Origin: Pseudomonadota bacterium
GTDB taxonomy: Bacteria > Desulfobacterota > Desulfobacteria > Desulfobacterales > RPRI01
Length of the DNA stretch: 14,726 nucleotides
Assembly: GCA_043825875.1 (NCBI GenBank)
Contig: JBDRRF010000050.1
Span: 1-14,726 of the forward strand
Direction: 5' to 3'
Shown: positions 6,001 to 12,000 of the stretch, in pieces
Layout of the letters: every line of letters begins with the position of its first letter
Position numbering within the stretch: the stretch's first letter is position 1
Program-made: the position numbers

Positions 6001-9000
6001 ATTCATTTATTGAGGAGCTTCTTGGATTAACACAGGAAATACAGCTTCTTGCTAAAAATTTTCCAACTTTTTCAGATAATCAGATGACATCAGGTCTTAA
6101 AAACTGGATTGATCATTATGCCACTTTAATGAAAGTTCTATATTTCAAGTTAACACAGCTTAGATTGATGAATGTCGGTGATTTTGCAGATCTATTTTTA
6201 AAAAGCATAAGAAACATAGCCAAAGAATCTAATAAAAGTGTTAATATTGAAATAATCGGCAGTGAAATACAGGCGGACATTACACTTCTTGAGCGTCTTC
6301 GTGAACCAATGATACATATTTTCAGAAACTGCATCGCTCATGGTATTGAACCGGCAGAAGAGCGAACCAATATAGGAAAACCTGCAAACGGTAAAATTAC
6401 AATTGAAACAAAAAGTGAAAAAGAGAATTTATTCATCAAAATCCGCGATGATGGACGCGGTATAAACAAGTCTTCTATCATTCAATATCTCAAAGAAAAG
6501 CAATCAATGGATGATGAAGATATTGGCAGAATGTCTGAAGAAGAACTCTACAATACTATTTTAAGTCCGGAATTTTCTTCATCTGCCAAAACAACGGAAT
6601 TATCCGGCAGAGGTATTGGCATGAATGTAGTTGCTCAGTCAATCGATTACCTGGGGGGCTCTTTATCCATATCTTCGGAAATTGGAAAGGGAACAGAGTT
6701 TACTATCAAATTACCGCTGTCACTCTCAATCATTTATGCAATTGTATTTTCAATAGGAAAATATAACCTGGCGGTCCCCACCCTATATGTCGAATCAATA
6801 AGCAACATAGATGCATCTTCTGACGAAGATATTACATCTTATTATGACATTAAAAAATATATCGGAGCAACAGATAACGAAAAGAGTCCCTTTAATGTTT
6901 TAAATTTAAAATACTTCAACAGTCAGTCAGCTATTATTGGCAATAAACCCAATTTGCGTTTTCTGGTGGATAATATAATCGGAAACCGGCCTCTTATGGT
7001 ATTGCCTACAGGAGAGCTTTTATCAAGTATAAAACTTTTTTCCGGAATAGGTATCATGGAAAACGGAGATATCGCCCTGCTTCTTGACATAGAGAATCTT
7101 CCACCGCAAAAGCATTAAAGCCAATCGAACTTTAATAAAGTATGCCGGATCTAATTATTCTCTATGTGATACCCGGCTTCCCCCTCGTAGATTAATGTAT
7201 GAGTCCTTTGTGCAATTTTTTCAGGATCAACTTTAATCTTCGCAACGCCTGATTCCATGGCAGCACGTGCAACTGCCGCAGCAACCGCTGGAGGAACGTT
7301 AAAATCCATGCCCCTGGGAATAATAGATTGTGGATTAAGTTTTTTATCTGAAACAAGAGCTGCTACGGTTCTTGCTGCCGCTATCTTCATCTCCTCATTT
7401 ATTATTCTTGCACGAACATCCAGCGCTCCTCTGAATACACCCGGAAAAATCAAGGAGTTATTAACCTGATTAGGAAAATCGGATCTTCCCGTAGCAACAA
7501 TCAATGCCCCGGCCTCTTTTGCCTCATCCGGGTGAATCTCAGGCGTTGGGTTGGCAAGCGCAAATATAATAGGATCTTTTGCCATGGTTAAGAGCATTTC
7601 TTTTGTAAGAACTCCGGCAACGGAAAGACCTATAAAAATATCGGAACCTTTAATTACTTTCGCAAGATCTCCTTTTATTTTTTCCGGATTTGTCTGCTCA
7701 GCCATTTCATCCTTCATCCAGTTCATACCTTCTTGCCGCCCTTTATATATTGCGCCGTTTTTATCACAAAGTATAATGTGTTTTACTCCTATTTCCATTA
7801 TCAGTTTGCAAACTGCAATAGCTGCTGCACCAGCTCCGTTTATTATAACCTTTACATCCCCAGCTTTTTTGCCGGATATTTTAAGTGAATTAAGTAAAGC
7901 AGCTGTAACAATAATAGCGGTACCATGCTGGTCATCATGGAATACCGGAATATCCATCTCTTCTTTAAGACGTCTTTCGATATAAAAGCAACGGGGCGCA
8001 GATATATCTTCTAAATTTATCCCTCCGAAAGTAGGGCTCATTCTCTTTACGATCTCCACAATTTCATCTGCATCCTGAGTACATAAACAGATCGGAAAAG
8101 CCTCAACTCCTGCAAAAGTCTGGAACAAAATTGCTTTTCCTTCCATTACAGGCATTGCGGCCTGCGGGCCTATATTTCCAAGACCAAGCACAGCACTGCC
8201 ATCTGTAACAATGGCCACAAGATTTCCCTTGGCAGTGTAGTCATATATCAATTCGGGGTTTTCCCTGATCAGGCGCGCCGGCGCTTCTGCAAAAGGAGGC
8301 ATGTAAAACTGGCCGAGAATATAATTATCCTTGATCGCTATTTTACTTCTTATCTGGAGAACCCCACGGTATCGCCTGTGAAACTCAAGCGATTCTTCCT
8401 CAATCGACTTTTTTTTCGGATCAGGCGGATCAATAGGCCACTGCCCTTCATATACATACCTGCGGGTCATATCGGAAATAACAGCAGGATCAACATCTCC
8501 TTTGGCTTCCCCTGTCTTTATCGCAGCCTTTGCAACTGCTTCCGCTATTTTTGGCGCAACCCGAAAGTCGAATATTTTCGGCATAACATGCTCAGGATTA
8601 AGCTCCTCGGAACTCACACAATCAGCAAGAGCCTGAGCCGCAGAAAGTGCCATATCCGTATTAATATTGCTTGCCCGTGTTTCAAGAATGCCTCTGAAAA
8701 AGCCCGGAAAAATCATTGCAACATCAGACTGATTAGGAAAATCCGCTCTGTTAAACACCATTACTTTTGCACCTGCATGGCGCGCTTCATCAGGCATAAT
8801 TTCAGGATGAGGAGTAGAAAGGGCAAATACTATCGGGTCTTTTGCCATGGATTTTATCATATCTCCGTTAAGAACATTTCCGGATGAAAGACCGATAAAA
8901 ACATCTGCCCCTTTTAGAGCCTGCTCTAGAGTTCCAATAAAATTATCAGGATTTGTGTTTTTAACTATTTCCCACTTCGCCCAGCTCATTCCTTTCAGAC

Positions 9001-12000
9001 GGTATTTATAAAGTGAGCCGTCCCTGTCGCATACTATCACCTGTTTTATCCCGGCTTTTACTAAAAGGTCCGCGCTTGCAAGTCCGGCCATACCAGCTCC
9101 GTTTATTACTACCCTGGAGTTAACAATATCCTTATCAACAACCTTCATTGAATTTATCAAAGCGGCAAGAACGGGAATTGCAACTCCAAGCCCATGATTA
9201 TTAAATACCGGTATATCTGCAGCTCTTTCAAGATGATCGGTAATAGTAAAGCTCTGGGGACTTGCAATGTCTTCAAGGCAGAACGCTCCAAAAGTTGGTG
9301 TAAGAGCCAGTGCAGTTTCAATAAACTCATAAGGATCTTTTGTTCTGATGCATATCGGAAGGGCATCTACACCGGCAAATGTCTTGAATATAACAGACTT
9401 TCCCTCCATAACAGGAAGAGCTGCTTCAGGCCCTGCATGCCCAAGCCGAAATAGTCCGGAACCGTCTGTTAAAATACCTACTGTGTTTCCGCGACATGAT
9501 AACAAATAAGACTGTACCGGGTCTTTGGCTATTTCCAAACAGGAAGAAGCAACTCCGGGAGTATAAACAAGGCTTAATATCCTTGAATCCTTTATTGGTA
9601 TCTTGGGGGAAACACCTATAACTCCACGATAACGTTTCCTGTATGCAAGAGCTTGTGCTTCCTGATTAATAATATTTTCCGGCATTGAAATCTCCTTAAA
9701 AAAGGGTTCCTGGTTTCGATGGTTCAAGAGATAAACCCACTTCACTTGAATCCTTGAACCCTGGAACCATTGAATCCTTAATATTATATTTTTGAACCGT
9801 TTTTCACAGCTTTGGTTGCAAGATAATCGGCAAGTTCATTTTCTTTATGGCCTGCATGACCTTTGACTTTAATAAGTTTAATATCATTAAAACTTCTCAT
9901 TTTTACTTTAATTGAATTTATTAATTCAATATTTTTTTTTGGTTTCCAGTTTAAACAAAGAACACCGTAAGAATAAGAACTATCTGTAAATATTCTTACC
10001 GGTTTTTTTGTTGTCTTAAGCTCTGCCAGGGCAACTCTTATTGCTTCCAGTTCTGCAATATTGTTAGTAGCAATTCCTATATACTGTGATATCTCCTTTT
10101 CAAGTTCTCCGAAACGCAATAAAACCCCAATACCTGAAGGTCCCGGATTGCCAGATGATGCGCCATCAGTATAAATACAAACAGCATCCGAAGGGATAAC
10201 TTCTTCCTTGATAAAAACGTTAACAGATTTTTTTAAAGAATTTTTATTTGATACTTTTTTATCATCTTTCGACCCATCTTTTTTTATAGAATCTACAGGC
10301 TCAAGTTTATTTTCAAAAACCCAGTATTCATAGTCCTGCTTAGTATTATATTTAATCAATACTTTTCCGTTTTTAATTACCGGTTTTTCTTCGGATGAAA
10401 AGGCCTGCCAGACTTTGTTGCCCTTAAACATCTTTCTTTTCCATAAGATATCATTTTCTTCCATAATTAATAACCCAGCCTACAAACCAAATTCACGAGT
10501 AAAGATGATATTTACAGCTTATATCAAGATATTGCTCAAGCTCAACTTTCCACGATTTTTCTATATCTTCAATATCAGCATTGTTTTCAATTGCACTGCG
10601 AATCTCAGGATTTCCGGTGATAAGATCTATAGGATATTTTTCAAATTCATATTCATAAGGAGGAAGTTTCCACTCGAAATAATTTCTATAGCATTGAAAT
10701 ACTGCTTGAAGCAATTTCAAAGATGAATAATATGGTTTATATTTAATGGGATCTGTAACATGAATCTGGAAACCTCTGCACAGCTCACCCTGCCATTTGT
10801 TTGATGTGGGCTCAAATGCAACCGGTCTTAATATGGCACCGGGAAGTTTGTTGCCACCTAAAAAAGATATGATTTTATCAGTTTCTACAAACGGGGCTCC
10901 AAATATTTCAAAAGGCTGAGTTGTACCACGTCCTTCCGAGATATTTGTACCTTCCCATATAACCTGGCCTGGGTAAACAATGGCGGAAACAGGATTCGGA
11001 AGATTCGGAGAAGGAGTAATCCATGGAAGAGAAGTTTGCCAAAAAAACATATCTCTTCTCCATCCTTTCATAGGAATTACTTCAAGATCACAGTTTATAT
11101 TAAAATGTTTATTGAAAAGCTGTGCCAGTTCTCCTATTGTAAGGCCGTGTCGCATTGGTATGGGGTAACGCCCCACAAAAGAAATGTATTCGGAAGAAAG
11201 AATGTTGCCTTCAACCGCAATACCACCTATAGGATTAGGCCTGTCAAGAATAACAACTTTCTTGCCAAATTTCTTAGCAGCCTCAAGGCAGTATGACATT
11301 GTATATATAAAAGTATAAACGCGCGTACCTACATCCTGAAGGTCTACAAGAAGAATATCAATAGGCTCAAACATCTCTTTTGTCGGTATTCGTGTTTTTC
11401 CATATAAACTGAAAACCTGAATGCCAAGCGTATTATCTACAATGTTTTCAGACTCAATCATATTATCCTGTTTTTCTGAAAAAAAGCCATGCTGGGGAGA
11501 ATAAAGAGCAGCAAGTTTTTTAGGAAATTTTTCGTTTATCAATTCCCTGGCATGATTAAAATTACTGTCAACAGAAGCCGGATTGCATAAAAGTCCGAAG
11601 CGCTTTCCGGAAATAAATGACGGAGGTGATTTTATAAAATTTTCAAGTCCGCTAAAAGCAGTAGTCATTATATATAAATACCTCCTTCAGTTATTGTTTA
11701 CTCCATACATCTTTAAGATCATCGCTAAACTGATACCGGATTCCATTTTCATTTAAAATCTCTTCAGTGGCCGTTTCAATCTCATTATGCTTAAAAACAA
11801 GGCATTCACTTCTTGTGTTTGCAAATCTGAAGATAACAAATTCTTCCTTGTTATCTCTTAATGTCTCAACAAGATGAACCAGGTTTTTAATCGGCACATC
11901 ATTTACACTTTTAATTACTCCAAATGGGCCTCTTGTATCATAGCCTTTGGTAATCCTGTGGGAAAACATGGGGGAAAATACAGCGACCAATTCTTCACCC

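Follow-up and report, generated by a model that had tools for sequence, protein, structure and literature searches.

Small malic enzymes (MEs) form homodimers of intertwined subunits, and every active site borrows its tyrosine from the neighbouring subunit (PMC7902834, PMC11944484). The locus studied here raises the question of how this arrangement is realized when two such subunits are joined in one chain. The window, a stretch of 14,726 nucleotides of contig JBDRRF010000050.1 from a Pseudomonadota bacterium (assembly GCA_043825875.1), encodes an 844-residue protein (P0001; Table 1). A Pfam scan found the malic (PF00390) and Malic_M (PF03949) domains twice each in P0001 and no PTA domain (PF01515). 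This agrees with the first-pass annotation, which had described two whole ME subunits fused head to tail, as opposed to an ME-PTA hybrid, aligning end to end at about 47% identity and forming the sole ME gene of the genome. The two halves are identical at 192 of 417 positions in a global alignment and share 46.6% identity over 408 residues by tblastn, and P0001 is the only match by tblastn and PF00390 in this genome (99.8% complete). Its scores for NF009501 (699, cut-off 1178) and NF010052 (201, cut-off 326) are both below the cut-offs. ATG 9685 is favoured as the start over GTG 9745 because AAGGAG sits 6 nt upstream. A promoter scan of the locus revealed nothing exceeding shuffled sequences.

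Table 1 Features of the tandem malic enzyme locus (positions within the window).
Feature	Position	Strand	Basis
Tandem ME gene, 844 aa plus stop (P0001)	7151..9685	-	ORF translation, Pfam
AAGGAG, Shine-Dalgarno-like, 6 nt upstream of ATG at 9685	9692..9697	-	read from sequence
N-half, aa 1-415: fold of a whole small-ME protomer, degenerate catalytic core	8441..9685	-	half alignment, motif counts, structure match
Y41-T-P-G-V crossover motif, putative donor of catalytic Tyr to C-half site	9551..9565	-	120/120, 176/177; role from PMC7902834, PMC11944484
N163/H164 in place of the equivalents of catalytic D584 and metal-binding D585	9194..9199	-	alignment
N-half Rossmann GxG (196-198), D220, R229, K237: kept adenosine-2'-phosphate determinants	8975..9100	-	alignment to BbMaeB D233/R242/K250
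Pro-rich linker between halves, aa 416-427	8405..8440	-	AF2 block pLDDT 85-95; spacing count
C-half, aa 428-844: intact catalytic core	7154..8404	-	residue counts; 1vl6 structure match
Y461-M-P-P-F: crossover motif in eroded form, putative counterpart for the N-half pocket	8291..8305	-	strict motif 0/177, Tyr 165/177

We then compared the two halves across the family, employing 120 listed homologues (833-871 aa, 97-100% cover) and motif counts in 177 tandem relatives, reduced to 44 by dereplication, against 191 single-ME controls. The search of genome contigs for related loci had returned single MEs only (80 loci), which were taken as controls. The crossover motif Y[TS]PG[VI] is present in 184 of 191 single MEs and in 176 of 177 tandem N-halves, but in none of the 177 C-halves. 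The catalytic motif HDDQ follows the opposite pattern, being found in 184/191 single MEs, in every tandem C-half (177/177) and in no tandem N-half (0/177). The C-half core comprises K517, E559, D560, H583-D584-D585-Q586, the GxG motif at 617-619, N712 and N742/N743; its Lys, Glu, Asp, His and the two further Asp occur in all 177 tandems and N712 in 176. Among the 120 homologues, the reported invariance of Y41-T-P-G-V in the N-half and of K517, E559, D560, H583, D584, D585 and N712 in the C-half was reproduced in full. The D584, N557, N743 and N712 positions are occupied in the C-halves of 43-44 of the 44 dereplicated tandems, whereas in the N-halves the equivalents of D584, N557 and N743 are found in 0/44 and that of N712 in 5/44. 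At least five of six key residues never occur together in any of the 177 tandem N-halves. The loss of the Asp pair from the N-half, as put forward earlier, is true of P0001 itself and of the first Asp throughout (0/177), but the second Asp is kept in 49/177 tandems, including 23/120 among the homologues listed. The D584 equivalent is indeed mostly Asn, although our alignment gives 114 instead of 112 of 120. Residues 162-166 of the N-half are highly variable, with a family consensus of H-N-H-x-H.

The first-pass annotation had cautioned that the C-half retains its own Tyr (Y461) in 115/120 and that the N-half keeps most residues of the first motifs, and our counts agree. Covariation between loss of the C-half Tyr and loss of the N-half Lys was not seen among the tandems; the second pocket of full-length members is thus still under selection. 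The NADP determinants of BbMaeB are D233, R242 and K250 (PMC7902834), which by alignment correspond to D641, R650 and K658 in the C-half of P0001. Their N-half counterparts D220, R229 and K237 are kept in 44, 43 and 43 of the 44 dereplicated tandems. Retention of these 2'-phosphate residues together with loss of those at the nicotinamide end hints at a regulatory site in full-length N-halves. From sequence, their pocket is better called non-catalytic, and possibly ligand-binding, than 'dead', as it does not drift freely. Tentatively, the adenosine-2'-phosphate residues may serve to bind a regulatory ligand, either NADP(H) or an adenylate.

To relate this division of motifs to the fold, we inspected the AF2 model of P0001 (pLDDT 93.3, pTM 0.92). 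The small ME 5cee aligns to model residues 8..395, matching the N-half (r.m.s.d. 1.2 over 387 residues), and 1vl6 to model residues 426..809, matching the C-half (r.m.s.d. 1.2). Some 30 monomeric large-class ME chains mostly superpose on a model range of ~26-836, as exemplified by 1gz3 (model 29..836 to 99..562, 377 aligned). A model of a reduced relative gives the same large-class pattern (27..719 to 96..559). This range most likely combines the N-half arm with the C-half core of the model; since VIA-align reports only the first and last aligned residues, the junction of arm and core was read from these ranges. That the halves pair inside a single chain, and not across chains, is suggested by the model and the conserved linker length. 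AF2 may, on the other hand, have reproduced the known homodimer arrangement.

Relatives with altered layouts show the same division. Reduced proteins of 640-770 aa lack the N-half Rossmann domain through deletion and no longer have the C-half Tyr, but the N-half Tyr persists. Among 19 of them, the N-half Tyr motif is present in 16, the strict C-half motif in 0, and the N-half Rossmann domain is gapped in 18-19; one reduced family has the N-half Tyr in 115/115 and the strict C-half motif in 0/115. One reduced relative is labelled Planctomycetota, and some lie on ciliate-type telomere-capped contigs, which would place the shrunken layout in gut ciliates. In a further protein, P0139, an intact core without YTPGV comes first, and the copy that follows is eroded and carries YTPGV at 504. 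Both of its halves are nearest to a single ME, and a search for relatives found only the cluster to which it belongs (4 members) and one ACT-ME, P0423. As judged from this one cluster, P0139 appears to be an independent mirror-order fusion with the same division of Tyr and core.

Taken together, the motif split, the structural ranges, the reduced relatives and the mirror-order fusion support the earlier proposal that P0001 is a covalent pseudo-dimer with one working active site, to which we assign a probability of about 0.8. A small-class ME gene would have been duplicated in tandem and fused, yielding a malate:NAD(P)+ oxidative decarboxylase, probably NADP-preferring, whose two halves are predicted to fold as a small-ME dimer inside one chain. 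The C-half core would bind metal, malate and NAD(P)+ and supply the Lys/Asp pair, and the N-half arm would supply Tyr41 to this site. The second pocket, formed by the N-half core and C-half Tyr461, presumably does not turn over malate, because it is without the Lys-positioning Asp, usually without one metal ligand, and without the nicotinamide-orienting Asn residues. The N-half would be retained because its arm and interface are indispensable; its Rossmann domain is probably not needed for catalysis, as some lineages have deleted it.

The same motifs could be complemented between chains if tandems assembled into dimers or oligomers by intertwining the N-half of one chain with the C-half of another. 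Small-ME dimers are entangled, the partner's arm being threaded through a loop that the N- and C-terminal helices close (PMC11944484), so that an intramolecular version may need threading, which inter-chain pairing would avoid. However, the single-chain model is confident including the linker, and in 133 of 143 measurable tandems the markers on either side of the junction lie 23-27 aa apart, consistent with a single fixed geometry. We therefore regard pairing between chains as improbable. It is less probable still that both pockets are catalytic, the N pocket performing a slower or different reaction (e.g. oxaloacetate decarboxylation or NAD(P)H-linked reduction) by means of K96, E138, D139, the His-rich motif and Tyr461. 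K96, E138 and D139 are kept in 146, 157 and 155 of 177 tandems (Arg replaces K96 in 25), the C-half Tyr is kept in 165, the Rossmann GxG and its D/R/K residues persist, and the consensus H-N-H-x-H could bind metal. Yet the general-base-positioning Asp is missing from all 177 and N557 and N743 from all 44, motif 162-166 varies widely, and the reduced forms dispense with the domain.

Because the window comes from a metagenome-type assembly, one might suspect an artefact of assembly or annotation, or else a chance duplication that arose recently and is decaying. This explanation is virtually excluded: the halves are just 46% identical, the 833-871 aa layout is intact in 120/120 listed clusters, and the form occurs family-wide. 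The tandem is present in about 55 of 400 sampled genomes of the phylum, with whole families filled (f39, 12/12; f40, 5/5; f51, 5/5), and the N-halves form one group (SH-aLRT 94). Clustering at 50% identity leaves ~3 representatives of the full-length form, which is thus a tight family. In a FastTree analysis of all columns, the N-, C- and reduced halves stand apart from 143 single MEs (support 0.93). IQ-TREE runs on core columns, from which P0124 and P0134 were excluded, gave 7 changes for 4 groups and scattered the reduced C-halves over at least 3 places; that the N-, C- and reduced halves share one origin is neither rejected nor demonstrated (AU p=0.125). Gene context is not conserved across 33 tandem loci (89 of 96 flanking ORFs scanned). 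Recurrent neighbours are a CBS-domain gene (5) and an MDH-like gene (2); citrate synthase, a succinyl-CoA-synthetase-like ATP-grasp protein and DctM appear once each. The tandem ME shows no link to the window's convergent chemosensory cluster.

The tandem adds a fourth ME architecture to the small, large and hybrid forms, annotated so far as an ordinary ME, and we found no description of a tandem ME in the papers searched. In 51 of 62 tandem-bearing genomes no other Malic_M gene was seen, while 3 of the 62 also have a large-class ME; the tandem is the only ME detected in most of those checked. As a natural half-site experiment, it allows each shared site of a domain-swapped dimer to be mutated alone, which opens cross-protomer catalysis and half-site coupling of small MEs to direct tests. 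Duplication, pseudoenzyme formation and domain loss can be followed, as is rarely possible, through its full-length, reduced and mirror forms. The fuller picture is somewhat doubtful, namely an undescribed ME class in which a fused pseudoenzyme, its 2'-phospho-AMP residues kept and those for nicotinamide and substrate lost, completes the single site and adds a built-in NADP(H)/adenylate sensor, with an erosion series down to Rossmann-less forms (also on ciliate-type chromosomes) and an independent mirror origin.

Among known systems, fusion of an intertwined dimer head to tail through a short linker, as in P0001, has counterparts in two knotted proteins, VirC2 and the engineered HP0242 tandem (PMC10598012). 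That fusion of the entangled ME dimer turns the chain into a natural deep knot is rather unlikely; a knotted chain would be a natural example of knotting through fusion of an intertwined dimer. The word 'malic' is absent from the main text of two knot surveys. Plant mitochondrial NAD-ME alpha/beta are likewise duplicated, diverged and co-assembling ME subunits (PMC7573226, PMC11971034), but they belong to the large class, are encoded by separate genes, have homodimers described as active and share no Tyr. Large-class MEs (human ME2, E. coli MaeA, plant NADP-ME), a sequence family of ~560-600 aa, have the catalytic Tyr and the Lys together on one chain (PMC7902834), as P0001 would, but P0001 is only 20-29% identical to them (24-29% in structural alignments) and falls below the NF010052 cut-off. 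Their unswapped state is ascribed to insertions, not fusion (PMC11944484), and an origin of these cis-Tyr enzymes by such fusion and erosion is very unlikely. The hybrid MaeB/DME/TME enzymes (ME-PTA) resemble P0001 in size, in the ME domain and in an appended non-catalytic enzyme homologue that is a possible sensor (PMC7902834); in P0001 this part is instead a second ME copy, which would be built into the active site. Closest are the small prokaryotic MEs (Ca. Phytoplasma 5CEE, T. maritima 1VL6, P. horikoshii 1WW8/2DVM, Entamoeba 3NV9), whose whole protomer fold with its crossover arm matches each half of P0001 (r.m.s.d. 1.2-2.0). P0001 has the domains and fold of this class, with the core residues in the C-half and not in the N-half, and the partner-supplied Tyr has its counterpart in the YTPGV arm of the N-half, which the model ranges place on the C-half core. 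Whereas small MEs are homodimers whose ~40-50 kDa subunits form two equivalent sites, P0001 divides these features within one 844-residue chain, with asymmetric motifs and, as predicted, one complete site.

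The tandem malic enzyme (ME) P0001 is an 844-aa protein encoded by a minus-strand ORF (9685..7151) with a ribosome-binding site preceding its ATG. Pfam places the malic and Malic_M domains twice each and no PTA domain, and the best PDB sequence matches are small-class MEs, e.g. 5cee. The N-half (residues 1-415) and the C-half (residues 428-844) align end to end with 192 of 417 positions identical (46.6% over 408 aa). Thus, the first-pass annotation of two whole ME subunits fused head to tail, rather than an ME-PTA hybrid, is borne out, and a genome-wide search of the 99.8% complete source genome found no second ME, in line with its description as the only ME gene. 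Each of the 120 best-matching homologues listed is full-length (833-871 aa, 97-100% cover); their labels are Desulfobacterium, NC10, Chloroflexi, Nitrolancea, Thermomicrobiales, Nitrospinae and Deltaproteobacteria, in agreement with the proposed spread over several phyla; one cluster member is labelled Brocadiales. Databases annotate the tandem proteins as ordinary MEs. Literature searches, targeted ones included, yielded no description of a tandem or duplicated ME, and the word "tandem" is absent from PMC12704298 and PMC5958461. We consider the tandem ME a real new variant of small-class ME.

Passages of PMC7902834 on the hybrid MaeB reference enzyme state that Y52 is supplied by the other monomer, that K107 is coordinated by D174, that D233, R242 and K250 are the basis of NADP specificity and that N300 contacts the nicotinamide. 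Passages of PMC11944484 give the same roles for the Entamoeba enzyme, with Glu168, Asp169 and Asp194 as metal ligands, and call its dimer entangled. The published residues were mapped onto P0001 via alignment to its PDB sequence matches.

Residue equivalents in P0001 (N-half / C-half) and genes upstream of it in the window
Feature	Position	Strand	Basis or remark
Catalytic Tyr	Y41 / Y461		alignment mapping
Catalytic Lys	K96 / K517		alignment mapping
Glu-Asp	E138-D139 / E559-D560		alignment mapping
Asp pair	N163-H164 / D584-D585		alignment mapping
NADP determinants	D220-R229-K237 / D641-R650-K658		alignment mapping
Nicotinamide-contacting Asn	T291 / N712		alignment mapping
RNase H with ~90-aa unannotated N-terminal extension	9784-10464	-	Pfam match from residue 94
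NamZ muramidase, HtrA/Deg-type protease with PDZ, PEP-CTERM protein	10493-14465	-	

A pool of 270 proteins plus long ORFs from 165 loci gave 177 tandems and 216 single-hit sequences. Of the 216, 17 were reassigned as reduced forms, making 19 together with two others, and eight truncated or partial tandems were dropped; 191 single MEs remained. The strict Tyr motif (Y[TS]PG[VI]) is found in 184/191 singles, 176/177 tandem N-halves and 0/177 tandem C-halves, and HDDQ in 184/191, 0/177 and 177/177, respectively. After dereplication of the 177 tandems to 44, the equivalents of D584, N557 and N743 occur in none of the N-halves and that of N712 in five, while C-halves keep all four in 43-44 cases. 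The Gly of the Tyr motif persists in 14 and the Val in nine of the 44 C-halves, against 43-44 of the N-halves. By this complementary loss, the complete site is exactly the composite of C-core and N-arm.

The AF2 model of P0001 (91 sequences) reached a pLDDT of 93.3 and a pTM of 0.92, with 85-95 in the linker. 5cee superposes on residues 8..395 and 1vl6 on 426..809 (r.m.s.d. of 1.2 each), which matches a predicted fold in which each half is a whole swapped protomer. Most alignments of monomeric large-class MEs, which carry their catalytic Tyr in cis, cover ~380 residues and run from ~26 to ~836 of the model (1gz3: 29..836 to 99..562). Judging from these ranges, the span could only consist of N-arm and C-core. 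The alignment offset presumably places Y41 within one residue of human Y112.

HMMs built from the halves were used to scan the 150 best 50%-cluster representatives, and 36 long or odd proteins were examined. Reduced proteins, mostly 640-770 aa, start with an N part in which the arm, the helices and an eroded d2 domain remain but the Rossmann fold is missing, and continue with a full ME. Among 19 of them, the N Tyr motif is present in 16 (of the other three, two lack this stretch and one has Ser), the strict C motif in none and an intact C core in 18-19. In one reduced family, 115 full-length members among the 120 matches listed show the N motif in 115/115 and the C motif in 0/115, although these sequences form 22 clusters at 90% and two at 70% and are hence not independent; at the N Lys position they carry a hydrophobic residue, which is Phe in 112. 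The C-half of reduced forms has no Tyr of its own to contribute and must therefore pair with the N-half. The model of the reduced protein P0136 (pLDDT 92.1, pTM 0.92) aligns with large-class MEs on 27..719. Neither an N-half Rossmann domain nor a C-half Tyr motif is present in the reduced tandems P0125, P0128-P0133, P0136, P0137, P0142, P0143, P0146, P0147, P0150, P0157 and P0185, or in those of loci L168-L179. In addition, P0235 (1136 aa) carries a reduced-type tandem after ~200 extra residues, and P0124 (812 aa), with a partial internal deletion in its N-half, is a possible intermediate.

In 8/8 cases tested, the reduced arm was on average nearer to the N arms of tandems than to single MEs, and the reduced arms share the family signature of the tandems; from this likeness, the reduced forms probably descend from the same fusion, and reduction perhaps happened more than once. 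One reduced cluster is labelled Planctomycetota. Twelve metagenome loci of the P0136-type family have 19-30% GC; three end in CCCCAAT repeats on one side or on both, and one lies alongside SNARE and Ras genes. A passage of 10.1101/2022.01.05.474053 identifies CCCCAAT as the telomeric repeat of rumen ciliates, and a passage of PMC1413528 lists a malic enzyme, its architecture not described there, among bacteria-to-rumen-ciliate transfers. The AT-rich contigs with ciliate-like repeats suggest a bacteria-to-eukaryote transfer of one reduced family.

P0139 (848 aa, cluster of four) shows the opposite order: its first copy is an intact core without Tyr motif and its second is eroded, with YTPGV at 504. 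Both halves are nearest to the single ACT-type ME P0423 (58% and 40%), and the arm bears the single-ME signature. These relationships, from one cluster, indicate that P0139 is an independent mirror-order fusion with the same outcome. P0139, clustered with P0294 and P0295, also has an ~85-aa N-terminal extension that is ACT-like by eye. Long N-terminal extensions without ME-profile match were seen in the single MEs P0182 (resembling DEDD exonuclease by eye), P0138, P0140, P0151, P0181, P0186, P0212, P0239, P0253 and P0261, possibly unstudied fusions.

The motif split, the model ranges and the reduced and mirror forms agree with the proposed covalent pseudo-dimer with one working site, which we regard as well supported at the level of sequence and model. 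Retention of the YTPGV Tyr in the N-half likewise stood, and the reported loss of its Asp pair held for both residues in P0001 (N163-H164); across the 177 tandems the D584 equivalent is lost throughout, and the second Asp is retained in 49. A simple "dead half" is argued against by that Asp, by the C-half Tyr still present in 165/177 and the N-half Lys in 146/177 (Arg in 25), and by C-Tyr losses uncorrelated with N-Lys losses among tandems.

Within the genus, 6/16 genomes carry a tandem ME and the other 10/16 gave no ME match; in the phylum, it occurs in ~55/400 sampled genomes (49 checked as loci, six by match range), filling whole families. Just two Malic_M matches, as expected of one tandem gene, were found in 51/62 tandem-bearing genomes; of the rest, three also have a large-class ME, two have extra tandem copies, five are apparently split across contigs and one has an unexplained fragment. 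These counts indicate that the tandem is the working ME. Two or three copies occur in genomes G258 (C110, C121, C98) and G350 (C68, C126).

Gene neighbours are not conserved across tandem loci. In the window, a pilus-linked chemosensory cluster (563-7118, +; PilB/T2SSE ATPase with N-terminal TPR, then receiver-PAS, MCP, CheW and CheA-like kinase) converges on the ME gene, and four imperfect 8-bp tandem copies, noted by eye, lie between the RNase H and ME genes (9746-9777). A CBS-domain gene directly adjoins the tandem ME gene in 5/33 loci scanned (L126, L127, L128, L138, L145); CBS pairs often bind adenylates.

Small-ME dimers are entangled (passage of PMC11944484), head-to-tail fusion of an intertwined dimer gave a trefoil in a designed protein (passage of PMC10598012), and malic enzyme is absent from the main text of two knot surveys. 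By analogy the tandem chain might be knotted, but on balance we consider this rather unlikely.

In the N-halves of the 44 dereplicated full-length tandems, GxG is kept in 44, D220 in 43-44 and R229 and K237 in 43 each, i.e. at least as well as in the active C-half and better than in singles (R 107/143, K 104/143), while the nicotinamide-end residues are lost. Tentatively, and with the odds somewhat against it, the N-half site may hold NADP(H) by its 2'-phospho-ADP end without catalysing a reaction, i.e. act as a sensor. Rossmann-less reduced forms show that the N-half Rossmann domain is dispensable. The logic of such a sensor would be comparable to that of the PTA domain of MaeB.
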